The notes under the pieces were generated by a model, which did not search any database, was not told where the DNA came from, and worked only from the letters and a program-made list of their open reading frames with translations. This document shows, in pieces, positions 7,162 through 56,738 of a stretch of 56,738 nt of DNA. The translations under genes and the position numbers were made by a program. The stretch spans positions 1 to 56,738 of the forward strand of contig DASPLD010000221.1 in assembly GCA_035627755.1 (NCBI GenBank), written 5' to 3'. This stretch comes from Caulobacter sp. (GTDB taxonomy: Bacteria > Pseudomonadota > Alphaproteobacteria > Caulobacterales > Caulobacteraceae). Within the stretch, counting starts at the first letter, position 1. Every line of letters starts with the position of its first letter.

Positions 7162-8253
7162 TCATCGCCGGGCCTCCGCGGGAACATGGGCGTCGAACCA
7201 GCCCTTGAGCTCGGCCAGCGCCGGATCGGCCAGGCAGCTGTCCAGATAGCCCCACAGCCGGGGCAGGTAGCCCTCGTACCGGGGCTTGCCGTCGCGCGTC
7301 ACCAGCCGGGCGAAGATGCCGATGATGCGGGCCACGTTGAGTGCGCCGAGCGCATGGTAGTCGGCCAGGAACCGCTCCCGCTCCAGCCAGGGATGGGCCG
7401 CGAGATACCGCTCGAGAGCCGCCGCCTCGCGCTCCGGCGTCACCTGCCGGCGAGCGTCGTGCAGCAGCATGGACAGGTCCCAGACCCGGTGGGCCTTCAC
7501 CGCGTCCTGGAAGTCGACCATGCCGACGCGCGCGGGGCCCTCGCGGTCCGGCAGCCAGATCAGGTTCTCGGCGTGGTAGTCGCGGTGGCAGAAGACCTCC
7601 GCCCCCTCCTCCGCGGTCCGCAGGATCGGCGCCCAGGCCGCCTGCCACGCCTCCAGCGCCGCCGCGTCCGGCGCGAAGGCCGGCCGCAGCTTCGGCAGCC
7701 AGTCGACGAACAGCTCGGCGGCCGTGGTCAGGGCTAGGCCGTCGTAGGTCAGCAGCGGCCAGCGGACGTCCTCGCCCCCCAGCACGGCCGGCGGCGGGCT
7801 GGCGTGGATGACCGCCAGGGTGTCGACGGCGGCGTCGTAGAGCGCCGCCTCCTCGGCGCCGCCGGCGATGGCCTGGGCGAACAGCCCGTCGCCCAGGTCC
7901 TCCATGACCGCCAGCCCGGCCTCGACATCGAAGGCGACCATCCGCGGCGCCGACAGGCCCAGGTCGGTGAGGTGCCGCGCGCAGGCGACGAAGGCGTCCA
8001 CCCGCCCGGCCGCCAGCCGGTAGGCGGCGTTGAAGCCCAGCGCCCGCCGCTCCTCCACCGTCGCCCCGGGCGGACAGGGGGCGCTCTCGGCGCGCGGCGG
8101 CTGGTCCATGAAGATCAGGCTCGGGCCGCTGATCGGATGCAGACGCTCGTAGGCCCGGGTCGAGGCGTCGCCGGCCAGCGGCTGGCGCCGCGCCTGCCCA
8201 AGGCCATGCTCTGCCAGGAAGGCCGCCTTCAGGGCTTCACGATCAGAACTCAA
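7162..8253 (-). CDS. amgK: N-acetylmuramate/N-acetylglucosamine kinase (APH-like phosphotransferase)
   Basis: LAGDASTRAYERL, HRDYHAENL, DFQDA motifs. Probable TTG start at 8253 overlapping the tsaE stop; the ORF track starts at 8277. Confidence 0.88.
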   Translation of the reverse strand: MSSDREALKAAFLAEHGLGQARRQPLAGDASTRAYERLHPISGPSLIFMDQPPRAESAPCPPGATVEERRALGFNAAYRLAAGRVDAFVACARHLTDLGLSAPRMVAFDVEAGLAVMEDLGDGLFAQAIAGGAEEAALYDAAVDTLAVIHASPPPAVLGGEDVRWPLLTYDGLALTTAAELFVDWLPKLRPAFAPDAAALEAWQAAWAPILRTAEEGAEVFCHRDYHAENLIWLPDREGPARVGMVDFQDAVKAHRVWDLSMLLHDARRQVTPEREAAALERYLAAHPWLERERFLADYHALGALNVARIIGIFARLVTRDGKPRYEGYLPRLWGYLDSCLADPALAELKGWFDAHVPAEARR

Positions 8254-8680
8254 GCGGTCGGTCCTTCCAGGCGCCATGCGGGGTCAGGCGGGCGGTGCGG
8301 CCCTCACCCTCAAATGCGATCTCTATATCCAGTCTGTCGGCCGGAAGGCGACCCTCCAGCCGCTGCGGCCATTCGACCAGCGCCGCGCCCCCGTCCAGCG
8401 CCTCGTCCAGCCCGATCTCATAGGCCTCGTCCGGGTCGGTGAGCCGGTAGAGATCGAAATGGGCCAGGGGGAACCGCCCCGTCTCGTAGAACTGCACCAG
8501 GGTGAAGGTCGGGCTCGGCACCTCCTCGTCGGGGGTGGTCAGCGCCCGCACCAGGGCCCGGGCCAGGGTCGACTTGCCCGCCCCCAGCGGGCCCGACAGG
8601 CAGATCGCCTCCCCAGGGCCCAGCAGCGCGGCCAGCCGCCGGCCGAGCGCCTGCGTCGCCGCCTCGTCGGCCAAGACCAC
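8243..8680 (-). CDS. tsaE: tRNA threonylcarbamoyladenosine biosynthesis ATPase
   Basis: LSGPLGAGKSTLARA, VPSPTFTLVQ, HFDLYRL, LVEWP. Confidence 0.96.
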   Translation of the reverse strand: MVLADEAATQALGRRLAALLGPGEAICLSGPLGAGKSTLARALVRALTTPDEEVPSPTFTLVQFYETGRFPLAHFDLYRLTDPDEAYEIGLDEALDGGAALVEWPQRLEGRLPADRLDIEIAFEGEGRTARLTPHGAWKDRPLEF

Positions 8681-8682
8681 GT

Positions 8683-9513
8683 TCAGAACACCGCCCCCGG
8701 ATCGCGCGGCAAGGTGCGTTCGACGAAGGTCTTCAGCGCCTCGGTGATCGGCTCCGCCGCCTGGCCGGCCAGCCGTTCGGGCGGGATGGCCCGCCCGAAG
8801 GTCAGCGAGAACCGCCTCCCCTTCTTGTTCAGGAGCTCATGGAACAGGGTGATGTCGCGCAGCTCCGGCGAGAAGCCGTTGAAGAAGTGGAACAGGGTCG
8901 ACCAGGGCCCCGACACATGCGCCGGCACGACCGGGGCCTCGTACTTCTGGGCCACCGAGATCGCCGTCGGCATCCAGGGCTTGTCGGTCAGCACCCCCTG
9001 GGTGTCCCGCCGCGCCAGCACCCCGGCCGGGAAGATGGCCAGGCAGCGCTCGGCCTCCATCGCCTCGCGGGTCATCTGCAGGGTGAGCCGGGTGCGCTCG
9101 CGCGTCCGCTTGGTCTTCACCCATTCGACCGGGATCAGCGCCTCGTCGAACCGGGGGCAGACCCGGTGGGCGTCGGAGTTGGCGTAGAACAGCAGGTCTG
9201 GCCGGGGCCCCTTGAGCTTGTCGTACAGGGCGATGCCGTCGGCGATCCCGGTCGGATGGTTGGCCACCACGACCAGCCGCCCGGTCGCGGGCACATGCTC
9301 CAGTCCCCGCGCCGTGACGTCGAGCGCCAGCAGGTCGGAGATATGCTCCATCGCCGCCGCCCCGCCCATCGGCGCGATGGCGTCGGCCATGGCCCGCGCC
9401 TGCGGATAGTGCAGCGCCTGATAGAGCGGCTGGCGCACCAGCGGCCAGGCCCAGGATCCCGCCAGCTTCGGCGCCCGCTCCTCGATCAGGATGTCGACGA
9501 TGGGTTTTTCCAC
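8683..9513 (-). CDS. PlsC-family lysophospholipid/aminolipid acyltransferase
   Basis: NHPTGIADG (HX4D) and IFPAG motifs. GTG start at 9513 chosen because the longer ORF runs into the repeat. Confidence 0.8.
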   Translation of the reverse strand: MEKPIVDILIEERAPKLAGSWAWPLVRQPLYQALHYPQARAMADAIAPMGGAAAMEHISDLLALDVTARGLEHVPATGRLVVVANHPTGIADGIALYDKLKGPRPDLLFYANSDAHRVCPRFDEALIPVEWVKTKRTRERTRLTLQMTREAMEAERCLAIFPAGVLARRDTQGVLTDKPWMPTAISVAQKYEAPVVPAHVSGPWSTLFHFFNGFSPELRDITLFHELLNKKGRRFSLTFGRAIPPERLAGQAAEPITEALKTFVERTLPRDPGAVF

Positions 9514-9543
9514 GAGTCCGAGTCTATCCACCCAACCTTCATC

Positions 9544-9683
9544 CGTCATCCCGGCCGCAGGGCGAAGCCCGGAAAGCCGGACCCAGGGCGAGCGGCAAAC
9601 TACCGGCAGCTTCAAGTTCCGCTCCCGTCCCCCCTGGGTCCCGGGTCTCCCCCCGGCTACGCCGGGGTCCGCCCGGGATGACG
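9544..9683. repeat. CGTC-tagged palindromic intergenic repeat, copy 2
   Basis: CGTCATCCCGG...CCGGACCCAGGG / CCCTGGGTCCCGGG...CCGGGATGACG. Confidence 0.9.
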
Positions 9684-9687
9684 GGAG

Positions 9688-11484
9688 TTATTTCACCAAC
9701 GCGTCGAACTCGTCCACCAGCCGCTCGATGCCGGCGCAGCCCGCCGCCCAGAAGCTCTTCTGCCGGGGATCGAGTCCGAACGGCTCCAGCGCCTCCACGT
9801 AGGTCCGGGTGCCGCCGGCCGCCAGCAGCCGCTCATAGACGGGCGCGAAGCCTTGCGGATCCTCCCGCCGCTTTTCCATCAGCGCCCGCACCAGCAGGTC
9901 TCCGAAGGCGTAGGCATAGACATAGAACGGCGCGTGGACGAAGTGGCTGACGTAGGCCCAGTAGTGCTCGTACCCGGGGTTGAGCCGCACCGCCGGCCCG
10001 AGGCTCGCCCCCATCACCTCCAGCCACAGCCCGCCCAGTTCGTCCGGCGACAGCTCGCCGGCCTGGCGGGCGTCGTGGAACCGGGTCTCGAACTGGTGGA
10101 AGGCGATCTGGCGGACCACGGTGTTCAGCCCGTCCTCGATCCGCCCGGCCAGCAGCCCCAGCTTCTCCTCCGGCCGGGCCTCGGCCAGCAGCCGCTCGAA
10201 CACCAGCCCTTCGCCGAAAATGGAGGCGGTTTCGGCCAGGGTCAGCGGCGTGTCGGCCAGCAGGGTGCCGAGCGGCGCCGCCAGGGTCTGGTGCACCGCG
10301 TGGCCGAGCTCATGGGCCAGGGTCAGCACGTCGCGCCGCTCGCCCATGTAGTTCATGAACACATAGGGGTGCCGCCCGGCGGTGACCGGATGGCTGTAGG
10401 CCCCCGAAGACTTCCCCGGCCGCGGCCGGGCGTCGATCCACGGCCGTTCGAAGAACACCCGCGCCCCGTCGGCGAACTTGGGCGCCAGGGCGCTGAAGCT
10501 TTCCAGCACGATCCCCTTGGCCTCCCGCCAGTCGTACAGCCGCGGCTGGGCGGCGGTCAGGGGGGCGTTGCGGTCCCAGTGGTCGAGGGTCTTCTTGCCC
10601 AGCACCCGGGCCTTCAGGGCGTAGTAGCGGTGCGAGGTCGCCGCGTAGGCCTCGGTCACGGCCTCGACCATGGCCTCGACGCTCTCGGCATGCACCTCGT
10701 TGGCCAGGTGGCGGCCGTGGGCCGGGCTCTCGTACCTGCGCCAGCGATCCTCGACCTGCTTCTCCAGGGCGATGGTGTTGAGGCAGAGCCCCAGGGTGGC
10801 GCTGCGCTCCTCCAGGGCCTCGGCCAGACCGTTCGCCGCCGCCTTGCGGCGCTTGGCGTCCGGATCGGAGAGCCGGTTTAGGGTCTCCGGCAGAGTCAGG
10901 CGGTCGCGCCCGACCCGGGCCACCAGCCTGGCCAGGGTCTCGTCATAGAGCCGGCCCCAGTTGGCCACGGCCGGCGAGCGGTCGAGCAGCAGGCTCTCCA
11001 GCTCCTGGCTGAGTTCATGCGGCCGCGACAGCCGCACCCGCCGCAGCCACGGCGCCCAGCGGGCGGCGGCCGGATGCGCCTCGAGCGCCGACGCGATCTC
11101 CCCGTCCTCCAGCTGGTTGAGCTCGAGGGTGAAGAACAGACTCCTGCTGGCGATCTCGGCGCTCTTCATCCGGAAGTCGGCCTCGAACTTGGCCCAGCGC
11201 GGATCGTCCCTGGCCGTCGAGGCGGCCAGGGAGGCGTAGGCGCCCACCGCCCAGAGCCCGTCGGTCGCCTGCTCATACAGCCGGATGCCCCGGTCGATCA
11301 GCTCGCCCAGCATCGCCGGGTCGCCCCGCGCCGCGAGGAACTGGCCCTCCAGCGCCGCCAGGGTGTCGTTGGCCGCCCGGGCGGCGGCGATGTCGGCCTC
11401 GATCCGCGGATCGGCGCGGTCGGCGTAGAGATCGGCAAGGCTCCACTCGGGGAGGTCGGCGGTGATCTTGGACATTTGGGACAT
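9688..11484 (-). CDS. pepF: M3 family oligoendopeptidase F
   Basis: LPEWSLADLY N-terminus, WID..PRPGK.SGA, TLAHELGHAVH (HExxH), LAETAS, HAPFYVYAYAFG. Confidence 0.92.
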   Translation of the reverse strand: MSQMSKITADLPEWSLADLYADRADPRIEADIAAARAANDTLAALEGQFLAARGDPAMLGELIDRGIRLYEQATDGLWAVGAYASLAASTARDDPRWAKFEADFRMKSAEIASRSLFFTLELNQLEDGEIASALEAHPAAARWAPWLRRVRLSRPHELSQELESLLLDRSPAVANWGRLYDETLARLVARVGRDRLTLPETLNRLSDPDAKRRKAAANGLAEALEERSATLGLCLNTIALEKQVEDRWRRYESPAHGRHLANEVHAESVEAMVEAVTEAYAATSHRYYALKARVLGKKTLDHWDRNAPLTAAQPRLYDWREAKGIVLESFSALAPKFADGARVFFERPWIDARPRPGKSSGAYSHPVTAGRHPYVFMNYMGERRDVLTLAHELGHAVHQTLAAPLGTLLADTPLTLAETASIFGEGLVFERLLAEARPEEKLGLLAGRIEDGLNTVVRQIAFHQFETRFHDARQAGELSPDELGGLWLEVMGASLGPAVRLNPGYEHYWAYVSHFVHAPFYVYAYAFGDLLVRALMEKRREDPQGFAPVYERLLAAGGTRTYVEALEPFGLDPRQKSFWAAGCAGIERLVDEFDALVK

Positions 11485-45809: not shown

Positions 45810-45983
45810 CTAGCCTGCGTCGGTCTCGCCCTGGCCCGCCGCTTCGAGCAGCCGCTTCGCGGACGCGATAGCGGCCTCGACGGTCAACGAGGCGCTGAGG
45901 CCGTCCGGCCCGGTGATGACGATCTCGCCCTCGACGGCCTGAACCTCCAGGGGTGTGTCGAAGGCATTGAGGTGATTGTCCAT
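45810..45983 (-). CDS. 57-aa small acidic protein (below the ORF-track cutoff)
   Basis: MDNHLNAFDTPLEVQAVEGEIVITGPDGLSASLTVEAAIASAKRLLEAAGQGETDAG; TGAAC-N16-CATT at 45993-46017. Confidence 0.68.
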   Translation of the reverse strand: MDNHLNAFDTPLEVQAVEGEIVITGPDGLSASLTVEAAIASAKRLLEAAGQGETDAG

Positions 45984-46040
45984 GGCCGATCAAATGCGGC
46001 TCCGGCCATAAGGTTCAGCCCTTTCGCGCCGCCGGAGGCC

Positions 46041-46736
46041 TCAACGGCGAGTCTCGGGGTTCCGGCACCCACACCCGGCCGCGGCCAGCCGGCCGGGGTC
46101 GGTCACCGCGAACCAGCCCCGGCCTGCCCGGATGGCGTCGGCGGCGGTCAGGTCCGTCATCAGGGCGGTGACCGTGGTGCGACAGACCCCGACGCTGGCC
46201 GACAGGGTCTCCTGTGTCAGATAGAGCCGCTCGCCGCCCTGACGCCGGTCGTAGCTCCGAAGAATGTCCGCCAGCCTTTCCCGCGCCCCATGGGTGAGGC
46301 CGCAGGAGGCGATCGCGTGGGTCTCCGCCTCGGCCTCGGCGAGATAGACCCACAGCCGCTTCATTACCGCGTCGTCGGCCCGGGCCAGGGCGGGGAAGGC
46401 GGTCGCCGAAACGGACCAGGCTATGGTCGGGGTCAGCACGCGGGCCTCGAAGCGGGGGATCCCGCCCCCGAAGGCCTGCAGCAGGCCGACGGCGCCCTCG
46501 GAGGAGACCATGCCCACCTCGATCTCGCCGCCGTCGACGCTCAGCGTCCGCAGGGAGATCAGCCCGGACTCCGGGAAGAGGATGGTCTCTCCGGCCCGCC
46601 AGGGCGTCGCCCCGGGCTCATAGGTCGTCCGGGCCCCGATACCGGCCAGGGCGGAGAAGAACTCCGAGCTGCAACCCGTCAGAAGGCTGTTGCGGACGAC
46701 GGCCAGGGCGGTTGCCGGCGCGGTGATGCAGGACAT
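46041..46736 (-). CDS. Crp/Fnr family transcriptional regulator
   Basis: RN.LL, FPESGLISL, EVGMV..EG..G, H...ERLA..L, HTH LTQETL...VGV.R.TVT; start uncertain. Confidence 0.85.
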   Translation of the reverse strand: MSCITAPATALAVVRNSLLTGCSSEFFSALAGIGARTTYEPGATPWRAGETILFPESGLISLRTLSVDGGEIEVGMVSSEGAVGLLQAFGGGIPRFEARVLTPTIAWSVSATAFPALARADDAVMKRLWVYLAEAEAETHAIASCGLTHGARERLADILRSYDRRQGGERLYLTQETLSASVGVCRTTVTALMTDLTAADAIRAGRGWFAVTDPGRLAAAGCGCRNPETRR

Positions 46737-46832
46737 GGAGATGGGAGATCCCGGGATAAGCTGAACGGCGGCAGAATGCTGATCCGGTCGGGCGCCTGCA
46801 TTAACCTGTGCTAGCGGACGCCAGGTCATCCG

Positions 46833-46857
46833 GGAACCGTCCGCGGGGTGGTGTGTT
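46833..46857 (+). promoter_or_regulatory. SigT/EcfG-like promoter of the methyltransferase
   Basis: GGAAC-N16-TGTT. Confidence 0.6.
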
Positions 46858-46887
46858 TGGCATCCAGGGCGAACCTCGGGGTCAGAC

Positions 46888-47820
46888 TTGCCGGACAACA
46901 GACACGACGCACGCGTTCGGCTGCTGTCGCTGGTCGGCGCGCGGGGCTACCGGTTCGTAACGCCCACCAACGGGACCATCCGCCGGATGCATCGCCGCGG
47001 GCTGCCGGGCGCGCCGACGCTGCGGGATATCTTCGGGTGGTCGCTGCCGTTCGGCGAGGGCGTCCTGGACGACGACCTCGCCGCCGCGCTGGAGGCGGCC
47101 GGCGGGCTGGAGCTGACGGCAGACGGCTTCCGCAGCCGGCTCCGGATTTCGACCGTGGGGGAGCTGCTGTTCCTGCACTCGGCCTATCCGACCGATGCGG
47201 CGGATGCGGTGTTCCTCGGCCCGGACTCCTATCGCTTCGTCGTCCTCATCGAGGCCGCGCTCAAGGACCGCCGGCCGGAAGGACCGATCCTCGACCTCGG
47301 GGCCGGGGCCGGGGTCGGGGGACTGTTCGCCGGCGCGCGATGCCCGGGCTCCGCCGTCACGCTCAGCGACCCCAACCCCGCCGCCCTGGCGCTGGCCGCC
47401 GCCAACGCGGCCCATGCGGGACAGGCCGTCCGGCTTTGCGAGGCCAGCGGGTATGACGGGGTCGGCGGCGACTTCGGCCTGATCCTGGCCAACCCGCCGT
47501 TCATCGCCGGCGAGTCCGGCCGCATCTACCGCGACGGCGGCGATCTCCATGGGGCCCGGCTGTCCCTGGACTGGGCGAGCGAGGGGATGGCGCGGCTGCG
47601 GCCGGGCGGGCGGCTGGTGCTCTATACCGGCAGCCCGATCCTGCTCGGCGGCGAGGACCAGTTCCGCCGGCTTCTGGCCGACGCGGTGGAGTCGGAAGGC
47701 TGTACGCTCGCCTACCGGGAGCTCGATCCGGACATCTTCCCGTCGGAACTCGGTCGGGCGGCCTATCAGGACGTCGAGCGGATCGCCGCGGTCGGGGCGG
47801 TGATCACCCGGCCGGCCTAG
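46888..47820 (+). CDS. Class I SAM-dependent methyltransferase, NPPF (HemK/PrmC-like) type
   Basis: GYRF.TPT N-domain, VFLGPDSYRF, ILDLGAGAG, ILANPPF, ELDPDIF..EL...Y..VERIAAV. Confidence 0.9.
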   Translation: MPDNRHDARVRLLSLVGARGYRFVTPTNGTIRRMHRRGLPGAPTLRDIFGWSLPFGEGVLDDDLAAALEAAGGLELTADGFRSRLRISTVGELLFLHSAYPTDAADAVFLGPDSYRFVVLIEAALKDRRPEGPILDLGAGAGVGGLFAGARCPGSAVTLSDPNPAALALAAANAAHAGQAVRLCEASGYDGVGGDFGLILANPPFIAGESGRIYRDGGDLHGARLSLDWASEGMARLRPGGRLVLYTGSPILLGGEDQFRRLLADAVESEGCTLAYRELDPDIFPSELGRAAYQDVERIAAVGAVITRPA

Positions 47821-48637
47821 AGGCCTCGGCGATGGCCTCCACCGTCCTGGGCTGGTCGGCCGGGCGGCGGGTCTTCAGGTCGAGCCGGTCGCCGTCCGCC
47901 AGGACGTGGAGCCGGACATCGAACATCGACAGGGCGCACTCCGCCCGCCCTTCGGCGACGTTGGAGGCGGTGACCCCTTCGGCGTCCACCACATAGACCG
48001 CCCCGCGGCCCAGCACCTCGAAGGCGCCTTCGCGCAGCAGGATGGCGGTGTCCTCGTCGATGCCGATCCCCAGCACCCGCGGGCTCTGCGCGACCGCCCC
48101 GAGCAGTCGCCCGATACGGCCGCGCTCGGCGAAATGCTGGTCGATGATCACGTCCCGCACCAGGCCCAGGCCCGGCGCCATGTGCAGGTCGCCCAGCCGG
48201 TGGCTTTCCGAACTGGAGCCACGCACCAGCATGGTGTCGCTCATCACCGAGGCGCCGGCCGAGGTGCCGGCCAGGAAACCGCCGCCGCGCCAGATCTCGC
48301 GCAGGCGGGCCTCGAGGGGCGTGTCGCCGATCTGGCTGCTGATCCTCAGCTGGTCGCCGCCGGAGAAGAAGACCCCGGCGGCGTCATCGAGCAGCGCCAC
48401 CTTGGCCGGATCATGGGCCTGGGCGCGATCCTCGACATAGAGTTCGACCAGCTCGCCCACCCCGAGACCCTCGAACCCCTTCTGGTAGGATTCGAAATAG
48501 CCCTCCGGTTCGTGCGAGGCCACGGTGGCGATGACCAGCTTGCGGCCTCGCGCCTCGCGCGCGATGGCCTTGAGGATCCGGCGCTTGCCTTCCTTGTCCT
48601 CGTGCCCGCCGATGATGAACAGGGGACCTTCAGGCAT
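47804..48637 (-). CDS. cphB: Cyanophycinase (S51 serine peptidase)
   Basis: IIGGHEDK, FFSGGDQ, GTSAGA (Ser), IDQHF.ERGR.GRL (His), GIDEDT (Glu); no signal peptide; overlaps the cphA end. Confidence 0.94.
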   Translation of the reverse strand: MPEGPLFIIGGHEDKEGKRRILKAIAREARGRKLVIATVASHEPEGYFESYQKGFEGLGVGELVELYVEDRAQAHDPAKVALLDDAAGVFFSGGDQLRISSQIGDTPLEARLREIWRGGGFLAGTSAGASVMSDTMLVRGSSSESHRLGDLHMAPGLGLVRDVIIDQHFAERGRIGRLLGAVAQSPRVLGIGIDEDTAILLREGAFEVLGRGAVYVVDAEGVTASNVAEGRAECALSMFDVRLHVLADGDRLDLKTRRPADQPRTVEAIAEASRPAG

Positions 48638-51347
48638 GCATCACCGCCGGTTCAGAGACTTGGTCCCGTGATCCGGGCTTGAAGTCGAGGATCTGGCGCC
48701 ACACCCCCTCGACCGCGGTGGGCATGACGACCACCAGGTCGCCGGGCCTCGCGGCGCGCAGCGCGGCGTCCACCGCGTCGCGTTCGCAGAGGATCTGCTC
48801 GATGCGCCCCGGATCGGCGCCGGCCTGGAGGGCGCCGTCCGCCAGCAGGCTGACGACTTCGCCGGCCGGGCGGCCCCGTCCGTCCGGCCGCTCCCGGAAG
48901 ATGACGTGATCGAAGATCTGGCCGGCGATCCCGCCCAGTTCGCGGATGTCCTGGTCCCGCCGGTCGCCCGGCATGCTGGCCACCCCGATCACCCGCCCGT
49001 AGCTGGGCCGCATCCGGTCGATCAGCCCGCCCAGGGCGCGGACAGCCTCCGGATTGTGCGCATAGTCCATGATCACCCGGAAGCCGCCGACGTCGTGGAT
49101 GTTCAGTCGGCCGGGGTTCTGCTCGAACGACGAGCCGAAGGCGGCGAGCGCCTCGCGGATGGTCGTCACCGGGACCTTCAGGCCATGGCCGGCCAGGATT
49201 GCGGCCAGGGCGTTCTGCACGTTGAACTGGGCGGCGCCGTTCAGGGTCGCGGGGATGTCCTCCACAGCCATGACCTCGGTGCGCGCCTCGCCCTCCAGGA
49301 TGACGAGCGCGCCGCCCTCGACGGCCGCGACAATGCCGCCGGCCGCCAGGTGCTTCTGCAGCAGGGGCGACAAGGCCACGCCGCCGCTCATGGTGAAATA
49401 GGCGACCCGGCCGCCGGCGTGGCGGGCCATCCGCAGGGTGTGGGGATCGTCGCCGTTGAGGATGCTGAGGCCCCGCCGCGACACCGCCTCGACGACCACC
49501 GACTTGACCCGGGCCAGGTCCTCCAGGGTGTCGATCCCCTTGAGGCCCAGGTGGTCGGGCGCGATGTTGAGCACGATGCCGACGTCGCAACGGTCGAAGG
49601 CCAGGCCCTCGCGCAGGATGCCGCCGCGGGCGGTCTCCAGCACGGCCGCCTCGACGGTCGGGTCGGCCAACACCATCCGGGCGCTCTTGGGGCCGCTGGC
49701 GTCGGCGGCGACCAGCCGCTCGTCGTTGACATAGACCCCGCTGGTGTTGGTCAGGCCGACGGTCAGTCCCTGCCGGCGCAGGATGGCGGCGACCATCCGC
49801 CCCACGGTCGACTTGCCGTTGGTGCCGGTGACCGCGACGATCGGGATGCGGGACCGCGAACCCCGCGGGTAGAGCTGGTCGATCACCGCCCGGGCCACGT
49901 CGCGAGGCTGCCCCTCCGACGGCGCCAGGTGCATGCGGAAGCCTGGCGCCGCGTTGACCTCGACCACGCCCCCGCCGGTCTCGCGTACCGAGCGGGTAAT
50001 GTCCGGGGCAATGAAGTCGATGCCGGCCACGTCGAGCCCGATGGTCAGGGCCGCCCGGCGGGCCATGGCGGCATTGTCTGGGTGAATGACGTCGGTGCGG
50101 TCGATCGCCGTGCCGCCGGTGGAGAGGTTGGCGGTGGCGCGCAGCTGAATGGCGCGGCCTCTGGGGGGAACCGACTCCGGCGTCATCCCGACCCGGGCCA
50201 GCATCTCCTCGACATGGGCGTCGACGGCGATCCGGGTCATCACCGCCTCATGGCCGACGCCCCGCCGCGGATCGGCGTTCACCTGTTCGATCAGTTCGGC
50301 GACGGTATGCCGGCCATCGCCGACCACCTGCGCCGGCTGGCGCTCGGCGACCGCTACGACGCGGCCGCCGATGACCAGGATCCGGTAGTCCCGGCCGGTG
50401 TACTGCTGCTCGACGATCACCCGCCGCGAATGCCGGGCCGCCTGCCCGAAGCCCCAGCGGACCTGGTCTTCCGTGCGCAGGTCGAGGTTGACCCCGCGGC
50501 CGTGGTTGCCGTCCAGCGGCTTGACCACCACCGGCCCCTTGATCCGCCGGGCGGCGGCGACCGCCTCGTCGGCGGTGCGGACCACCTGGCCCTTGGGAAC
50601 CGCCACCCCGACCCGGTCGAGCAAGGCCTTGGTCAGGCTCTTGTCCCCGGCCGTCTCGACGGCGATCAGCGAGGTCTCGCCGGTGATGCTGGCCCGCAGG
50701 ATCTTGCGCCGGGCGCCCCAGCCGAGCTGCACCAGGCTCTGGTCGTTCAGCCGGGTCACCGGAATCCCCCGGCGGCGCGCCTCGTCGACCAGCGACTGGG
50801 TGGTCGGCCCGAAGGCGTCCTTGCGGACCAGGGCCGCGATCTCGGCGACGGCCCCGCTGAGGTCGAAGGGCTGGGTCAGGGACCGGGGGGGCGGCGCCAT
50901 CAGGTCGAGACCCTCCAGGCCCTGGAGCTCGGTCGGCAACAGGGAATGGGCCAGCTCCAGGGCGCAGCGCCCCGCCAGCCGGCCGGCCGCCTCCGAGCGG
51001 TAGGCGAAGAGGATGTTGTAGACGCCCGGCCGGCCCTTCACCGAGCGGGTCTTGCCGCGGGTGACCGGCGCGCCGGCCAGGGTCTGCAGCTCCAGGGCGA
51101 TATGCTCGACGACGTGGCCGAGCCAGGTGCCCTCCCGCAGCCTCCGGACGAAGCCGCCCGGTTCCTGGTAGCTGCAGCCGTGGCGTTCGAGCCCAGGCAG
51201 GCGGGCCAGGAGTTCGTCCACGAAATGCGGCAGGCGGTCGGACGGGAAGTCCTCGAGCGGACCGAGGTCCGCCATCATCCGGATCATCGGCCGGTGGCTG
51301 TGATCGTTCGGTCCCCGATAGGTTGATGCTTCCAGCACCCGCATCAT
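48630..51347 (-). CDS. cphA: Cyanophycin synthetase (CphA1 type)
   Basis: N-domain Cx19HxxEH, GPTT, ATP-grasp (VVKPLDGNHGRGV, ANLSTGG, EVNAAPG), Mur-ligase domain (VTGTNGKST, ETARGG, DHLG, DYAHN); SD GGGAGG. Confidence 0.96.
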   Translation of the reverse strand: MMRVLEASTYRGPNDHSHRPMIRMMADLGPLEDFPSDRLPHFVDELLARLPGLERHGCSYQEPGGFVRRLREGTWLGHVVEHIALELQTLAGAPVTRGKTRSVKGRPGVYNILFAYRSEAAGRLAGRCALELAHSLLPTELQGLEGLDLMAPPPRSLTQPFDLSGAVAEIAALVRKDAFGPTTQSLVDEARRRGIPVTRLNDQSLVQLGWGARRKILRASITGETSLIAVETAGDKSLTKALLDRVGVAVPKGQVVRTADEAVAAARRIKGPVVVKPLDGNHGRGVNLDLRTEDQVRWGFGQAARHSRRVIVEQQYTGRDYRILVIGGRVVAVAERQPAQVVGDGRHTVAELIEQVNADPRRGVGHEAVMTRIAVDAHVEEMLARVGMTPESVPPRGRAIQLRATANLSTGGTAIDRTDVIHPDNAAMARRAALTIGLDVAGIDFIAPDITRSVRETGGGVVEVNAAPGFRMHLAPSEGQPRDVARAVIDQLYPRGSRSRIPIVAVTGTNGKSTVGRMVAAILRRQGLTVGLTNTSGVYVNDERLVAADASGPKSARMVLADPTVEAAVLETARGGILREGLAFDRCDVGIVLNIAPDHLGLKGIDTLEDLARVKSVVVEAVSRRGLSILNGDDPHTLRMARHAGGRVAYFTMSGGVALSPLLQKHLAAGGIVAAVEGGALVILEGEARTEVMAVEDIPATLNGAAQFNVQNALAAILAGHGLKVPVTTIREALAAFGSSFEQNPGRLNIHDVGGFRVIMDYAHNPEAVRALGGLIDRMRPSYGRVIGVASMPGDRRDQDIRELGGIAGQIFDHVIFRERPDGRGRPAGEVVSLLADGALQAGADPGRIEQILCERDAVDAALRAARPGDLVVVMPTAVEGVWRQILDFKPGSRDQVSEPAVMHA

Positions 51348-51556
51348 GCGGCCTCCCGTTGCGCGGGAAGGGCCATCGGATCGGCGATATCGGGGAGGAT
51401 GGCGCGGACGATGCGCTGAATGACGAAAGCGGCCGCTTCCCGCTTTGTCGCGGCCTGGCCGCTGTCGAGCGACCCGCCGGCAAGGTCGTAGGTGGTCCAC
51501 CGCCAGCCGTCGTCGGCCGGCTCGATCGAGAACCTTGTCCCCTGCGCTGACATCAT
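51344..51556 (-). CDS. 70-aa hypothetical protein leading the cphAB operon
   Basis: MMSAQGTRFSIEPADDGWRWTTYDLAGGSLDSGQAATKREAAAFVI...; purine-rich SD; TGA overlaps the cphA ATG. Confidence 0.72.
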   Translation of the reverse strand: MMSAQGTRFSIEPADDGWRWTTYDLAGGSLDSGQAATKREAAAFVIQRIVRAILPDIADPMALPAQREAA

Positions 51557-51595
51557 GGCGTTTGGTCTCTCTCCCGCATCTTCGAGGCGAGTCTC

Positions 51596-51620
51596 AACGA
51601 TGGGCGAGCGACAAGGTTCC
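51596..51620 (-). promoter_or_regulatory. SigT/EcfG promoter of the orf-cphA-cphB operon
   Basis: Exact GGAAC-N16-CGTT. Confidence 0.78.
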
Positions 51621-51691
51621 TCTCCGGCCGGGGCCGAAAAACTGAGCATTTTTAGAAACTTAACATAGGTTTATGTCGACCCGCCGACTCT

Positions 51692-51716
51692 GGAACCGGC
51701 AATCGTCTGACGCGTA
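51692..51716 (+). promoter_or_regulatory. SigT/EcfG-like promoter of the diiron enzyme gene
   Basis: GGAAC-N16-CGTA. Confidence 0.65.
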
Positions 51717-51743
51717 TTCGCAGCTCAAAGGACGGAGTCACCC

Positions 51744-52655
51744 ATGTATCCGCGCGACTACACGATCGCTGACCTGCAAACGCCGGATGTCTTCTCGGCC
51801 GAGTTCCAGCAACGGCTCTCCCGCTGGAACCATGAGCGGCTGGCGGTCGGCAAGCCCAGCCCCTACTGGGAGGCGGACCTCGCCGAGGAGCAGGAGATGC
51901 GCCGGCTGGAGGGCCTGTTCATCGAGGCGTTCCGCGAGCGGCTCCATGACCGGCTTCGGGACCTGCCGACCGACCCGGACGGCTTCAATGTCTGGTTCGA
52001 GGCGTTGAAGGAGACCGGGCCGGGCCAGAACGACCCCCTGTTCCCCTGGCTCGCCGAGCAGGCCAGCCTGGAGGAGATGCGCTGGTTCCTGGAGCAGGAG
52101 GTGGCCGGCGAGGCGGGGTTCGAGGACCTGGTCGCCTATACCCAGGTCAAGATGCCGGTCCGCCCCAAGCTCGAACTCGCCCGCAACTACTGGGACGAGA
52201 TGGGCCACGGCGGCGAGCCCGGCATGCACGGGCCGATGCTGGACAAGCTGGCCCGGGCGCTCGACCTGAAGCCCAGGATCGAGACCACCCTCGCGCCCTC
52301 CCTGGCGCTCGGCAACGCCATGGTCGCCTTCGCGACCACCCGGCGCTACGCCTACCATGCGGTCGGCGCCCTGGGGGCCGTCGAGCTGACCGCGCCCTGG
52401 CGCGCGGCCCATGTGGCCGCTGGGCTGAAGCGCCTGGGCGTCGGCAAGGAGCGCCGCTACTTCGCCCTGCACTCGACCCTCGACATCAAGCATTCCGAGG
52501 CCTGGAACGCCGAGGTGCTGCGCCCGCTGGTCGAGGCCGACCCCGACTGCGCCCGCTACATCGCCGAGGGCGCCCTGATGCGGCTCGACTGCGGCCGCCG
52601 CTGCTTCGAGGCCTATCGGGCCCACCTGCGGCCGGGGCTGGAGATGGCCGCCTGA
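51744..52655 (+). CDS. Heme-oxygenase-like diiron enzyme (iron-containing redox enzyme family)
   Basis: QE...EAGFEDL, NYWDEMGHG...MH, GAVEL, YF.LHSTLD.KH metal-ligand pattern; SD GGAG. Confidence 0.88.
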   Translation: MYPRDYTIADLQTPDVFSAEFQQRLSRWNHERLAVGKPSPYWEADLAEEQEMRRLEGLFIEAFRERLHDRLRDLPTDPDGFNVWFEALKETGPGQNDPLFPWLAEQASLEEMRWFLEQEVAGEAGFEDLVAYTQVKMPVRPKLELARNYWDEMGHGGEPGMHGPMLDKLARALDLKPRIETTLAPSLALGNAMVAFATTRRYAYHAVGALGAVELTAPWRAAHVAAGLKRLGVGKERRYFALHSTLDIKHSEAWNAEVLRPLVEADPDCARYIAEGALMRLDCGRRCFEAYRAHLRPGLEMAA

Positions 52656-52704
52656 GCCGGGCCCTGGCGGCCCGCGCCGCCGGCGGCGCGCGGCCGCCGT
52701 AGGC

Positions 52705-53424
52705 TCAGACCGGATCCCGGCGAAGGCGCAGGTAGGCGGGGTCGAACTCGGCCACGTCCGCCAGGCCGTCCCAGTCGAGGATGGTGACCTGGCCGCTCTT
52801 CCATTCCAGAATCCCCATGCTGCGCAGGGCCATCAGGGTGCGGTTGACGTGGACCGGCGACAGGCCGAGCACGTCGGCCAGCACGGCCTGGGTGAGCGGC
52901 AGCTCGAAGGCCAGGCGGTCGGCCACCCCCGCCGCCTCCAGCCGCACGGCCATCTCGCAGACCAGGTGCGCCATCCGACCCAGCGCGTCCTGGCGGCCCA
53001 TCATCACCAGCCATTGGCGATGGATGGCGCCGTCGATGACGGTCTCCAGCCACAGCAGCCGCGCCAGATGCGGGTGCGCCTCGGTCAGGCGGCGAAGGTC
53101 GGCATGGGGGACCGCCACCACCTCGCAGTCGGTGAGGGCGACGACGCCGTGGTCCATGGTCTTGAGCAGCAGGCTGTGCAGGTCGACGAAGTCGCCCGGC
53201 ACATTGATCTCGGTGAACTGCCGGCCGCCGTCGCGCAGCAGCCCGAGCCGACCGCAGAAGCCGGACAGCAGCAGGGTGCTCTCGTTTGGCCGGTCCCCGG
53301 CGAGGATGAGGTCCGCCCCGGCGGCGTGCCGGCGATGCGTCCCGCGGATGCCGTGCAGCACCGCCGCCTCTTCGGCGGAAACGGCGTCGCGCCGGCGCAT
53401 CTTGGTGACGAGAAAATCAGTCAT
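52705..53424 (-). CDS. Crp/Fnr family transcriptional regulator
   Basis: G.RQ.....VPGDFVDL, W.V.MGR..A..RMAHL.CE, PLTQ..LAD.LGLS.VHVNRTL..L. Confidence 0.92.
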   Translation of the reverse strand: MTDFLVTKMRRRDAVSAEEAAVLHGIRGTHRRHAAGADLILAGDRPNESTLLLSGFCGRLGLLRDGGRQFTEINVPGDFVDLHSLLLKTMDHGVVALTDCEVVAVPHADLRRLTEAHPHLARLLWLETVIDGAIHRQWLVMMGRQDALGRMAHLVCEMAVRLEAAGVADRLAFELPLTQAVLADVLGLSPVHVNRTLMALRSMGILEWKSGQVTILDWDGLADVAEFDPAYLRLRRDPV

Positions 53425-53491
53425 CGGAACCTCCGGCGCCGGGGCCGGTTGGTCACGGCGACCCTCGCGGCCGCCGCCCTGCCCTTTCCAG

Positions 53492-53516
53492 AACCGCTCA
53501 GCGGCGGCGAAGTTTC
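53492..53516 (-). promoter_or_regulatory. Degenerate SigT-like promoter of the second Crp gene
   Basis: GAAAC-N16-GGTT. Confidence 0.45.
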
Positions 53517-53528
53517 GCCTGCGGGGAC

Positions 53529-55379
53529 TCAGAGCGGCGCCAGGATGTCTCGCAGCCTCGGCCGGGCGCCGGCGATCGGCGACAGGTGCGGGAAGCGATG
53601 GCCGCCCTGGTAGACGATGGAGACCGACCGCACCCGGGCCTGGGGCCGCGGCCTGACCGCGAGGTCAAGCATCCCGCCGTCGGCTATGGCGTCGCCGATC
53701 GCCTGTTCGCCGTAGTCCTGGCCGTTGACCTGTTCGATCAGGGCCCCGGCCGTCAGTCCCGCCTCGAAGGCCGGGCTGTCCCAGACCACTTCCTGGATGG
53801 TCCCGTCCGCCCCGATGTTCAGCCCGACGGAGAACCGGAGGTCGAACTGGCCTGCGTCGGCGTCGAACCGCCTGCAGAAGTCGCTTCGCTCGGGCCGGTA
53901 GACCAGGTTGTAGCCGCCCCGCTGCAACCCTTCGAGCGGCGCCCCCTGGCGCCGGCTTTCCAGCTTGTCGTCCAGAAAGGCCCGCCAGTCGTGGTCGGCC
54001 ACCTCCGTCAGGGTGGCGACGACCTCGTCCAGGTCATAGGTCCGGGTGGTCATCCGGCCGTCGTCGACGCCGAAGAAGGCGCGGGCGAAGTCGTCGAGGG
54101 ACCGCTCCTCGCCGGTGAGCTCGCGGATCAGGGTGTCGGCGGCCAGCCACAGCAGCTGGCCTTCCGAATAATAGTCCTCGCTGCGCTGCCAGCTCGGCCA
54201 GGGGATCGGCTCGCGCCCGTTGATGACCGGGTCGCGGGTGGTGTCCGCCAGGGTGCGCCAGCGGCCGCCCGGCCGGGTGTCATAGGTCGCGGCCACCTTG
54301 GCGAGGGCCTCGAGGGCGTGCTCGATGCTCCACATCCGGGCGCGGGCGGTCAGGACATGGCCCCAGTACTGGGTCTGGCCCTCGTAGACCCACATCAGGC
54401 TGTTGCGGATCGGCTTCTCGAAGTTCGGCGTCCAGGAGTCCGCCCCGCGGCGGAATTTGCCGTTCCAGGAATGGGTGAACTCGTGCGCGGCCACGTCCCG
54501 TTTGGTCAGGTGGCGGTCCCAGTCGGCGAAGTAGTCGGGCGGGGCGATGATTTCGGCGCAGCGGTGATGCTCCACGCCCCCGCCGCCAAGTTCCTCGCTG
54601 AGCGCGGTGAGGAAGCGGTAGCGGTCGAAGTGACGGGAAGCGAACAATCGATCCGCCTGCCGCACCAGCGCCCGATGCCGCTCGACGCCCTCGCCGCCGG
54701 CGGCGAGGTGGTTGGCGTCGTGGGCGAAGAGGTCCAGCCAGACGGCCTTGCCGTCGTCGAGCGGCACGGCCTCGTGGAAGCGGCCGGCCATCACCGGCGA
54801 GTCGACCAGGACGTCCAGCCCGACGGGCCGGAAGCGAACGGCGGCGCCGTCCTGGCCGGCGGGTTCCAGGACCGTGGCGAAGGTCCAGCCCTGGGGAAGG
54901 GTGACCGCCGCCTCGACCTGGATCCGGCGGGCGAAATGGCCGGCCGGATAAAGAAGCATCCGCCCCCAGTGGAGCAGGGCCATCTCGTCGCTGACTACCA
55001 CGTCGCCCTGGCCCTCGCTGGTCGGGGACAGGAACTGGAAGCGGGCCTCGATCGTCTGGGCGTCCTCGGGCGGCTCGACGTGGAAGGCGTGGACTTCCAC
55101 CGGGTCCCGGCGCCAGTCGAGCTTCCTGTCGCCGGCGCGGATTTCAAGGCCGGCGAACAGGCCGATCGGGTTCTGCGGCGCGTGATAGCCGGGCATCCAT
55201 TTGGGATAGAGCAGGATCAGCGGCCGGCCGCCGTCCACCGGCAGGGTCTGGACGACGTTGATGATCCCCCGGGCGGTGTCCGTCGCGTCCACAGAGAGGC
55301 GGACCACGCCGGGATAGTCGACATCGCGCGGCTCTGGAATCGGCGGGGGTTGCGGGGCGGGCTGCGGCAGGTCGGCCAT
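53529..55379 (-). CDS. M61 family metallo-aminopeptidase with C-terminal PDZ-like domain
   Basis: P.W.PG, LVDSP, GG.EH, HEFTHSWN, WVYEG.T.Y, YY..G, SPA..AGL..G...VNG. Confidence 0.92.
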   Translation of the reverse strand: MADLPQPAPQPPPIPEPRDVDYPGVVRLSVDATDTARGIINVVQTLPVDGGRPLILLYPKWMPGYHAPQNPIGLFAGLEIRAGDRKLDWRRDPVEVHAFHVEPPEDAQTIEARFQFLSPTSEGQGDVVVSDEMALLHWGRMLLYPAGHFARRIQVEAAVTLPQGWTFATVLEPAGQDGAAVRFRPVGLDVLVDSPVMAGRFHEAVPLDDGKAVWLDLFAHDANHLAAGGEGVERHRALVRQADRLFASRHFDRYRFLTALSEELGGGGVEHHRCAEIIAPPDYFADWDRHLTKRDVAAHEFTHSWNGKFRRGADSWTPNFEKPIRNSLMWVYEGQTQYWGHVLTARARMWSIEHALEALAKVAATYDTRPGGRWRTLADTTRDPVINGREPIPWPSWQRSEDYYSEGQLLWLAADTLIRELTGEERSLDDFARAFFGVDDGRMTTRTYDLDEVVATLTEVADHDWRAFLDDKLESRRQGAPLEGLQRGGYNLVYRPERSDFCRRFDADAGQFDLRFSVGLNIGADGTIQEVVWDSPAFEAGLTAGALIEQVNGQDYGEQAIGDAIADGGMLDLAVRPRPQARVRSVSIVYQGGHRFPHLSPIAGARPRLRDILAPL

Positions 55380-55486
55380 GGTGTCAGGTCACATCGTTGG
55401 GCTGGAAGGGCGCCGGATCGAGCGCTGGTCGGCGATCCGGTCGCCCGCCGTATCCGGCCCAGCGCCGCCCGGGTTCGGAGCCAGGA

Positions 55487-55511
55487 AACCGCAGGAACGC
55501 CGGGCTGTTCC
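55487..55511 (-). promoter_or_regulatory. SigT-like promoter of the M61 peptidase
   Basis: GGAAC-N16-GGTT. Confidence 0.6.
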
Positions 55512-55542
55512 TGCTCCTGGCGAATTTCGCGTGGATCCCGCC

Positions 55543-56223
55543 CTAGTCGGTTCCGGTCTTGCTGTGCGGCTCGGCGACCGCCTTGCTCTCGGGCGAGCCC
55601 TTCTCCCGCAGGAAGACGGCCAGCACCACGAGCAGGGCGGTGGAGAGGAACTCGCTCTGCCAGTTCTGGAAGCTTTCGAACCAGAACAGCGGGTCACCGA
55701 GATGCTGCAGGGCGGTCGGCGGCGGCTGGCCATGGACGATGGCGTCCTCCGCCGCGTCCCGCGCGCTGTTCAGCCAGTGCAGCACGAAGCTGGCCAGGAA
55801 CAGCAGCAGCATCGCCAGTCCCAGGGAGTGGGAATACAGCATTCGCCAGCCCGGCCCGGCCCGCACCGGCCAGGGCGTGTCCGGCCGCTGGCGGTCGCGC
55901 GCCGGATCGGCGTCCTGGGGCGCCGGCCGGTCCGGGTCCTTGGATTCCGGCGAGCCGCGCTGGAACAGGTAGGCCGTCAGCATGACATAGGCCCACATCT
56001 GCAGGAATTCGCTCTCCCAGTTCTCGAACAGGGTCGAGAGGAAGGTCCCGCCGACGAGGTACTGCGCCAAGCCGATGGAGGCTTCGCCATGCTCGGAGCG
56101 CTCAGCCAGGTCGGCGAGCCACCCCGTGAAGGCGTGACCGGTCACGGAGGCGGCGAACAAGGCGAGCAGGGCCAGGGTCAGCCCGTTGTCCCGCCAGAAG
56201 CGTGATGGGTGCGAGCGCGTCAT
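55543..56223 (-). CDS. DUF6766-like membrane protein (internal duplication)
   Basis: Two repeats FENWESEFLQ...QRGSPESK / FQNWQSEFLS...EKGSPESK; SD GAGGAG. Confidence 0.85.
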   Translation of the reverse strand: MTRSHPSRFWRDNGLTLALLALFAASVTGHAFTGWLADLAERSEHGEASIGLAQYLVGGTFLSTLFENWESEFLQMWAYVMLTAYLFQRGSPESKDPDRPAPQDADPARDRQRPDTPWPVRAGPGWRMLYSHSLGLAMLLLFLASFVLHWLNSARDAAEDAIVHGQPPPTALQHLGDPLFWFESFQNWQSEFLSTALLVVLAVFLREKGSPESKAVAEPHSKTGTD

Positions 56224-56243
56224 CGATGTCTCCTCGGCACCAT

Positions 56244-56269
56244 AGCGCCGGGCCGGGCGCGCCCGTTCC
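56244..56269 (-). promoter_or_regulatory. SigT-like promoter of the DUF6766 gene
   Basis: GGAAC-N17-CGCT. Confidence 0.5.
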
Positions 56270-56470
56270 TAGGTCGGCGAACCGACATATCCCCGGCCCT
56301 CATTTCGGCCCCGGCCAGGCTGGAACATCAGGCGCTCCCCCCGGTTTGGGCCCGCGAAGGAGGAACGCCCGCGCCGCAGCCGAGGACCCTACCGCCGGCG
56401 CCTCGCGCTGCAACGCGCGGCCATTGCCGACCGTCGCTCCGAGGCGCCCCGCCGCCTGGCGGGAGCAGCC

Positions 56471-56738
56471 TCAGGACGGGCCCAGGGCGGCGTGCGGCTG
56501 GTATTCGCCGAAGCTGCGAGCCAGGTCCGCGAGACTGACCTTGCCCAGCCTGGCGACCAGCAGGGCCTCGGCGTCGCGCAGGGCGTCGTCCAGGGCCGCA
56601 TTGACCGCTCGCTCGACGGCGCAGGCGGGGTCGGAGTTGTCCGCCCCGATCGCGAAGATCCGCGGGCCGCCCACGGCGCGATGAATGTCGAGCAAGGACA
56701 CGTTTGCAAGGTCTGCCGCCAGCAGCCAGCCGCCGCCG
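56471..56738 (-). CDS. Rrf2 family transcriptional regulator (5' end outside the window)
   Basis: GGGWLLAADLANVSLLDIHRAVG...C.VE.AVN..L...AE......L..VSLADL. Confidence 0.85.
   Translation of the reverse strand, partial: GGGWLLAADLANVSLLDIHRAVGGPRIFAIGADNSDPACAVERAVNAALDDALRDAEALLVARLGKVSLADLARSFGEYQPHAALGPS

Follow-up and report, generated by a model that had tools for sequence, protein, structure and literature searches.

Close to the end of a 56,738-nucleotide stretch of Caulobacter sp. DNA (assembly GCA_035627755.1, contig DASPLD010000221.1; the whole stretch is hereafter called the window), a cyanophycin operon with intact cphA1 and cphB genes is encoded on the minus strand between two plus-strand genes. 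One of these encodes a methyltransferase dependent on S-adenosylmethionine (SAM) with the fold of the N-methyltransferases AerE and GenN (MT), the other a heme-oxygenase-like diiron enzyme of family PF14518 (HDO). A previous sequence-only reading of the window had described this arrangement, and every gene named there was indeed found intact and in place; likewise, the divergent promoter region which it had assigned jointly to HDO and the cph operon could be confirmed across positions 51557-51743. The locus is real and conserved and constitutes an uncharacterised variant of those amino-acid tailoring clusters which combine an HDO, a methyltransferase and an amide ligase, the core of the conserved system being the HDO/MT pair rather than the cph genes. 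L and G numbers denote loci and genomes of the comparison.

On the minus strand, a small open reading frame (ORF) of approximately 70 amino acids (aa), cphA1 and cphB overlap stop-to-start, and MT is convergent on cphB, whose stop overlaps the stop region of MT (Table 1). The closest named relative, with 89% HDO identity, is Caulobacter sp. SLTY (L004), where the gene order is MT-cphB-cphA-small ORF-HDO. The small ORF is located between the predicted EcfG promoter and cphA1, its stop overlapping the cphA1 start. A small ORF of about 65-75 aa is present at this place in most Caulobacteraceae loci of the same CphA clade and missing from the sphingomonad loci, and that of the window gave no match in Pfam or NCBIfam. 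A role as precursor of a ribosomally synthesized and post-translationally modified peptide was rejected in view of this distribution, the variable sequence and the conservation of a beta-hairpin/helix-like W-x-W pattern.

Table 1 Features of the cyanophycin/HDO/MT locus and of its surroundings (positions refer to the window)
Feature	Position	Strand	Remarks
MT, class I SAM methyltransferase (likely N-methyltransferase), 310 aa, TTG start	46888..47820	+	PF05175 match; F109-x-G-P-D113; NPPF at 202-205
cphB, cyanophycinase	47804..48637	-	TIGR02069 284 bits (cut-off 127); GTSAG, DQHF and GIDE motifs
cphA1, cyanophycin synthetase, with start codon ATG (51347 or 51344)	48630..51347	-	TIGR02068 1124 bits (cut-off 850)
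Small ORF of ~70 aa with W-x-W motif, first in cph operon	51344..51556	-	conserved
HDO, HrmI-like	51744..52655	+	PF14518 E 8e-42; invariant E152, H162, E214, H243, D247, H250
EcfG/SigT promoter (predicted) of MT	46833..46857	+	GGAAC-N16-TGTT
EcfG/SigT promoter (predicted) of cph operon	51596..51620	-	exact GGAAC-N16-CGTT
EcfG/SigT promoter (predicted) of HDO	51692..51716	+	GGAAC-N16-CGTA
ORF of 57 aa, accessory	45810..45983	-	also represented in the stress islands L012 and L048
Crp-family regulator, accessory	46041..46736	-	not in locus of closest relative (L004)
Crp/FixK-family regulator, accessory stress-island gene	52705..53424	-	in 3/19 cph-clade loci
M61 glycyl aminopeptidase, accessory	53529..55379	-	nearby in no other one of the 19 cph-clade loci
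EcfG site (predicted) of M61 gene	55511	-	
DUF6766 membrane protein, accessory	55543..56223	-	in 2/19 cph-clade loci
EcfG site (predicted) of DUF6766 gene	56269	-	

Judged by sequence, both cyanophycin enzymes look canonical. CphA scores well above the TIGR02068 cut-off, aligns over its full length with the solved cyanophycin synthase 7lg5 (E 7e-234) and is built from PF18921, RimK and Mur domains, corresponding to the N, ATP-grasp and Mur domains of the CphA1 class, with the Cys/His/Glu/His motif of the N-domain retained, including the glutamate that is altered in the 7txv variant. CphB likewise exceeds its family cut-off and carries GTSAG, DQHF and GIDE, which we take to be the Ser-His-Glu motifs of cyanophycinase. 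In both enzymes the locus resembles canonical cphA1-cphB(-iaaA/iadA/cphZ) loci; the presence of iaaA in cyanophycin operons has been described (PMC10206079) and is also seen in many relatives of this locus. In contrast to canonical loci, the present one has predicted EcfG promoters, a small ORF at the head of the cph operon, and conserved MT and HDO genes. Within the available parts of two surveys of cyanophycin gene clusters (PMC10206079, PMC9974463), none of these features is mentioned, and methyltransferases appear only for isoaspartyl repair.

The HDO, with 303 aa, is modelled as an all-helical single domain (predicted local distance difference test score, pLDDT, 90.5). Its six iron ligands do not vary among 24 homologs and match the E-x9-H, E, HxxxDxxH pattern of the HDO superfamily (PMC13133933), to which the protein belongs by PF14518 match, helical bundle and ligands alike. 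The best structural match of the model is HrmI (TM score 0.84, 26% structural identity), followed by RohS and SznF, all top matches being N-oxygenases, and in profile searches HrmI (E 3e-44) stands far ahead of the next match (5e-4). With HrmI as closest solved relative, the N-oxygenase character presumed in the earlier reading is upheld. HrmI and BelK, from hormaomycin and belactosin biosynthesis, convert the side-chain amine of lysine into a nitro group via N6-hydroxylysine (PMC11611017, PMC13108848), BelK rejecting ornithine (PMC11611017), and the buried site of HrmI anchors the alpha-amine and the carboxylate of the free amino acid (PMC13108848). The HDO shares with them the same six iron ligands and many residues of the pocket helices. 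With regard to the seventh Glu ligand on the auxiliary helix, typical of the 3H/4C subgroup of SznF and RohS, E119 and E123 are invariant, but HrmI, a 3H/3C enzyme, carries Glu and Asp in the corresponding positions of the alignment. The HDO differs from HrmI/BelK in being coupled to a methyltransferase and a predicted stress promoter. Neither a BelL/HrmJ-type iron/2-oxoglutarate-dependent cyclopropanase nor a diaminopimelate epimerase nor a nonribosomal peptide synthetase occurs among the recurrent neighbour families, and the BelL/HrmJ-plus-epimerase signature of a HrmI/BelK ortholog cluster is hence missing.

Two further pathways invite comparison. In streptozotocin biosynthesis, arginine is N-methylated by SznE before N-hydroxylation by an HDO takes place. 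SznF acts on N-omega-methyl-Arg (PMC13133933, PMC10849742), and the combination of a methyltransferase with a PF14518 N-oxygenase is common to both systems. However, the HDO of the window is a single-domain protein that lacks a cupin and resembles SznF at a level of only 16-18%, which places it outside the N-nitrosating class in which HDO and cupin are fused, while the MT is of AerE/GenN type and neither sugar nor N-nitrosourea genes are found nearby. In the mangotoxin mbo cluster, an HDO is combined with ATP-grasp ligases and an arginine deiminase-like enzyme, and the same enzyme classes recur around the HDO/MT module elsewhere; mbo differs in its HDO subfamily, while the present locus has no visible redox partner, an extra methyltransferase and a polymer synthetase as ligase. 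At least 25 types of HDO/ATP-grasp clusters have been distinguished (PMC13185094), and the PurD-like form of the module described below may be among them. As side observations on the HDO family, Caulobacter sp. DWR1-3-2b1 carries two HDOs of different subclades flanking one cph cluster (L013:1815-2672 and 10001-10891), and an HDO subclade independent of cph adjoins thiC in three loci (L051, L054, about 7340-10400, and L026).

In its fold, the MT (model pLDDT 94.5) comes closest to AerE, with which 302 residues align (Z 25.3); GenN is next (Z 24.1), and HemK2 and PrmC rank behind. AerE and GenN being the closest solved relatives, the N-methyltransferase assignment of the earlier reading holds, and N-methylation is the likely reaction as judged from the model. 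AerE, which acts on Asn side chains in aeronamide, and GenN, which acts on a gentamicin amine, are alike to MT over the whole length; on the other hand, identity is only about 20%, and genes for a proteusin precursor, for an epimerase or for aminoglycoside biosynthesis are absent here. Besides the fold, Asp141, Asn231 and Phe234 of AerE are kept as D113, N202 and F205, and the GPDSY and NPPF motifs are common to both enzymes. The catalytic Tyr137, in contrast, is replaced by F109, which is invariant in 45 sequences, and the corresponding Y137F variant of AerE is nearly inactive (PMC9060474). Since MT has an invariant Phe where AerE needs Tyr137, it is plausible that its acceptor is a better nucleophile than a carboxamide. 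A release-factor methyltransferase of the PrmC/HemK type is not indicated, as the TIGR03534 profile yields 51 bits against a cut-off of 199. More than 3,400 relatives were retrieved with the MT query; in three sphingomonad loci (L141:6992-8377, L112, L113), an M20/M28 peptidase that looks secreted precedes MT.

Stress control, as proposed in the sequence-only reading, was examined by a motif search for GGAAC-N16/17-CGTT with one mismatch allowed, using the GGAAC and CGTT elements of sigma-T/EcfG promoters (PMC5869019) and their variants (PMC6599016). The predicted sites of HDO (51692, plus strand) and of the cph operon (51620, minus strand) stand back to back. EcfG-type sites lie upstream of 31/49 HDO homologs, of 18/30 cphA genes (including 17/20 of this clade, mostly about 235 bases upstream) and of 12/61 MT genes, whereas one-mismatch sites occur genome-wide at 0.093 per kb per strand, or approximately 0.035 per 380-base upstream region. 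Because the site rates upstream of all three genes exceed the genome rate, and the promoters are conserved in relatives, EcfG control of cph, HDO and MT is well supported as a sequence motif. With relaxed criteria, 10 sites fall into the 11-kb island, its limits having been set after the fact, whereas 11-kb bins of the genome contain 2.0 on average, none of 172 bins reaching 10. As each has its own predicted EcfG/SigT promoter, MT, HDO and the cph operon are predicted to be three separately transcribed units here. A gene-name search in the supplements of two regulon papers returned no matching gene. Two further EcfG-like sites (56322 and 53426, both plus strand) have no obvious gene downstream and may be chance matches or belong to small RNAs.

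The coupling of HDO and MT was followed in two sets of genomes by single-protein queries, with some genomes being incomplete. Among 151 genomes of the same family, HDO was found in 41, MT in 22 and CphA1 above cut-off in 9, and HDO is present in all 22 MT genomes versus 19 of the 129 others. The second sample comprised 251 genomes from the family of a Sphingomonas locus, of which 38 contain MT and 11 CphA1; here, HDO occurs in 35/38 MT-positive versus 2/20 MT-negative genomes (20 of the 213 negatives were tested), mostly unlinked. Stress genes taken as controls gave 17/38 versus 1/20 for manganese catalase and 8/38 versus 0/20 for DUF6766. HDO is often seen without MT and MT almost never without HDO. 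For 33 HDO loci from species-representative genomes, MT lies within 10 kb in 26, cph in 11 (L004-L014) and a PurD-like ligase in 8. In a phylum-wide sample, 13/15 MT loci outside the family are located directly behind a long PF14518 HDO that barely aligns with the HDO of the window, 5 of them with a GCS2 ligase. Altogether, the pair is found in Alpha-, Beta- and Gammaproteobacteria and in Myxococcota. In loci L080-L093, mostly of family f211, MT follows an HDO of about 470 aa from PF14518, often with a GCS2/YbdK ligase, which amounts to a non-orthologous partner swap.

Regarding the link to cyanophycin, MT is present in 8/9 and HDO in 9/9 CphA1 genomes of the own family; in the sphingomonad family, MT occurs in 6/8 genomes of this CphA clade and in 0/3 of another. 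At the same time, CphA1 is absent from 14/22 MT genomes of the own family (present in 8/22) and from 32/38 of the sphingomonads (present in 6/38), and neither HDO nor MT was found in another five alphaproteobacterial CphA1 genomes, which came from a set of 401 in this class. A dedicated cyanophycin-tailoring system, which had been the leading idea of the earlier reading, is not supported as the main interpretation by these counts (46/60 MT genomes without CphA1, five CphA1 genomes without HDO or MT), MT not being confined to genomes with cyanophycin genes. Its expectation that the pair would co-occur with cphAB beyond other stress genes is borne out for one cphAB clade.

Within 1.6 kb of cph in the 19 loci of this clade, MT was counted 9 times, iaaA 8 times, HDO 7 times (always divergent) and any other family at most 3 times; these loci were picked by cphA, L110 was reached via an HDO locus, and in four the sequence breaks off at one side of cph within 1.3 kb. 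At least six orders of cph with MT and/or HDO were seen, such as the one-strand operon cphA-iaaA-cphB-MT-HDO-symporter of Sphingobium yanoikuyae, MT-cphA-iaaA-cphB and MT-symporter-cphA-iaaA-cphB. Trees of HDO, MT and CphA were quick ones with Shimodaira-Hasegawa-like approximate likelihood ratio (SH-aLRT) support only, calculated from tblastn hit segments with partial hits excluded and, for CphA, from the first 520 residues. In the CphA tree, one clade of 21 rows from Caulobacteraceae and sphingomonads (SH-aLRT 95) contains 20 of the 21 linked loci, in which MT and/or HDO adjoin cph, compared with 1/16 outside of it; 11 clade rows had been found through HDO or MT, and of the other 10, 9 are linked. 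Because the linked loci gather in one clade that spans both families in many gene orders, the cph link is old and has been kept through rearrangement. Repeated independent recruitment to cph is not shown: the HDO tree requires at least two changes, the MT tree is compatible with one origin, and the CphA tree gathers the linked loci as stated. In the MT tree, the enzymes of cph-linked loci are scattered among those of other loci and form no specialised branch of their own.

Neighbouring partners offer clues to the substrate. Across 103 MT loci, partners within 2.5 kb are cph (19), PurD-like ligases (12), symporters of the dicarboxylate/amino-acid:cation type (11), guanidino hydrolases (6) and GCS2 ligases (5), with the match of L019 dropped from the PurD-like count as ordinary PurD (25% identity). 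At L037:7843-11202 (genome G016), a PurD-like ATP-grasp ligase is divergent from HDO at the usual place of cphA, and CphA1 was not found in that genome. DDAH/ArgZ-like guanidino hydrolases, that is, relatives of dimethylargininase and arginine dihydrolase whose scores all stay under the curated cut-offs, were found next to HDO or MT in 8 loci from two distant subfamilies; in L128:6954-8701 and L130:6973-8735 (minus strand), HDO, guanidino hydrolase and MT follow each other in the same direction, and HDO is preceded by an EcfG-type site. Abutment of MT and symporter suggests an imported substrate or an exported product. It is seen, often with overlap, in L077, L078, L106, L117, L119, L122, L127, L131, L133 and L134. 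The arginine of cyanophycin, the guanidino hydrolase neighbours and the N-methyl-Arg substrate of SznF favour arginine as substrate, with lysine as the alternative in view of HrmI. Separately, SET-domain genes were observed after the PurD-like ligase in L076, L118, L126 and L143.

The remaining genes of the island are accessory. The sequence-only reading had counted an M61 peptidase, two Crp regulators and DUF6766 as completing the island; all are present, but they are not conserved parts of it, since none occurs within 10 kb in L004. With their rarity in the 19 cph-clade loci added, they were rejected as pathway members. A paralog of the M61 gene is found on contig C335. The 57-aa ORF has homologs of 51-72% identity in L012 and in L048, the latter with two copies, and belongs to no family. 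Moreover, the GC content of the island (0.70-0.73) equals that of its flanks, and a compositional signal of horizontal acquisition was consequently dismissed. As a gene for an Rrf2-family regulator (56471-56738, minus strand) is truncated at the contig end, the island may extend further.

Taken together, we tentatively favour, at slightly less than even confidence, that HDO and MT form a stress module which N-oxygenates and methylates the side chain of probably arginine, possibly lysine, to yield a small compound, and that cyanophycin is an optional source of the substrate; here, the amino acid would probably be drawn from cyanophycin. A metabolite made from the stored nitrogen, named as second choice in the sequence-only reading, is thus the best fit to the evidence. 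Upon stress, the MT, HDO and cph units would be switched on together, CphA would store Asp and Arg, and CphB, together with IaaA in many relatives, would free beta-Asp-Arg and Arg. The HrmI-like HDO would then bind the amino acid and oxygenate its side-chain nitrogen, and MT would methylate a nitrogen of substrate or product, while in other lineages the partner slot would be taken by a PurD-like or GCS2 ligase, a guanidino hydrolase or an amino-acid symporter. There is a slight preference for HDO acting before MT, given that HDO is often found without MT and the reverse is almost never seen, and that MT carries Phe at the position of the Tyr which AerE requires for methylating a poor amide nucleophile. 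A search for a description of the HDO/MT module, and one for cyanophycin together with a heme oxygenase-like enzyme and a methyltransferase, returned no publication, with subscription journals mostly outside the coverage.

Several points weigh against this interpretation. Kinship or lifestyle explains part of the HDO/MT coupling, because manganese catalase and DUF6766 show the same trend, more weakly. The cph link may go back to a single ancestral event, so that the cph-linked loci are not independent. In genome G1150, MT is part of the cph operon and no HDO was found. Neither iaaA nor a guanidino hydrolase nor a symporter lies nearby at the locus of the window, and of the 103 MT loci, 67 lack all three kinds of ligase in the surrounding 2.5 kb, while 33 lack any recurrent partner. 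HrmI, the closest HDO relative, oxidises lysine and not arginine, and the substrates and catalysis proposed for HDO and MT derive by analogy from sequence, fold and context.

Less probable, though still to be taken seriously, is mere co-regulation, in which HDO and MT would act on something unrelated to cyanophycin and share with it an ancestral EcfG island with an inherited divergent promoter block. Such a scenario would agree with the three separate predicted promoters, with the lack of CphA1 in most genomes that have the pair, with the separation of cph and pair within the genomes G020, G041, G069, G1056 and G1144, with the confinement of the link mainly to one CphA clade and with neighbours that are general stress genes everywhere (zinc alcohol dehydrogenase, hemerythrin, catalases, CsbD). 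It accounts poorly, however, for an MT that is kept with cph upstream, downstream and stop/start-overlapping within the operon in at least six orders, and whose frequency of linkage comes close to that of the true partner iaaA and is threefold that of any other family.

That cyanophycin itself is naturally tailored, MT and HDO placing N-methyl and N-hydroxy or nitro groups on side chains of the polymer or its dipeptide under stress, appears unlikely, and marginally more so in the form in which iterative methylation by MT and oxygenation by HDO alter solubility or cyanophycinase resistance. Precedents exist in AerE, an iterative N-methyltransferase for the side-chain amides of a peptide that works without a leader (PMC9060474), and in MboA, an HDO acting on an ATP-grasp-made peptide (PMC13185094); in addition, MT stands in cph operons without HDO in G1117 as well as G1150, and its presence in 8/9 and 6/8 clade genomes would be in line with such a role. 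On the contrary, most MT genomes lack CphA1, cph-linked MTs do not branch apart, the catalytic Tyr137 of AerE has given way to Phe109, the HrmI site anchors a free amino acid (PMC13108848), and CphA and CphB look canonical. Very improbable, finally, is a protein-directed or protective function, with MT as a HemK-like protein methyltransferase, possibly acting on HDO, and HDO as an iron/oxygen-handling or self-sacrificing, CADD-like protein: the NPP(F/Y) motif with HemK2/PrmC as next-best folds, the nearly constant company of some HDO and a near-invariant GPGQ loop in HDO speak for it, whereas the partner HDOs share hardly any sequence similarity, HDO is far closer to HrmI than to CADD, the recurrent ligases, hydrolases and transporters point to small molecules, and GPGE replaces GPGQ in MT-linked Brevundimonas copies, which weakens methylation of HDO at this loop.

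The HDO/MT pair is common and accompanied by predicted stress promoters, and the promoter motifs point to general-stress-controlled cyanophycin production in these non-photosynthetic bacteria. The conserved attachment to one cyanophycin lineage limits the substrate candidates to Asp, Arg, Lys and their dipeptides and thereby brings a direct assay within reach, and cultured carriers exist in Caulobacter hibisci, Brevundimonas alba and Sphingobium yanoikuyae. Should cyanophycin prove to be tailored, a nitrogen store would become a protected granule or a reservoir of reactive nitrogen, for instance as a nitric oxide donor, and a first function would be assigned to a widespread stress module which pairs with three different amide ligases. 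A positive enzymatic result would reveal a new branch of cyanophycin metabolism along with new HDO chemistry.

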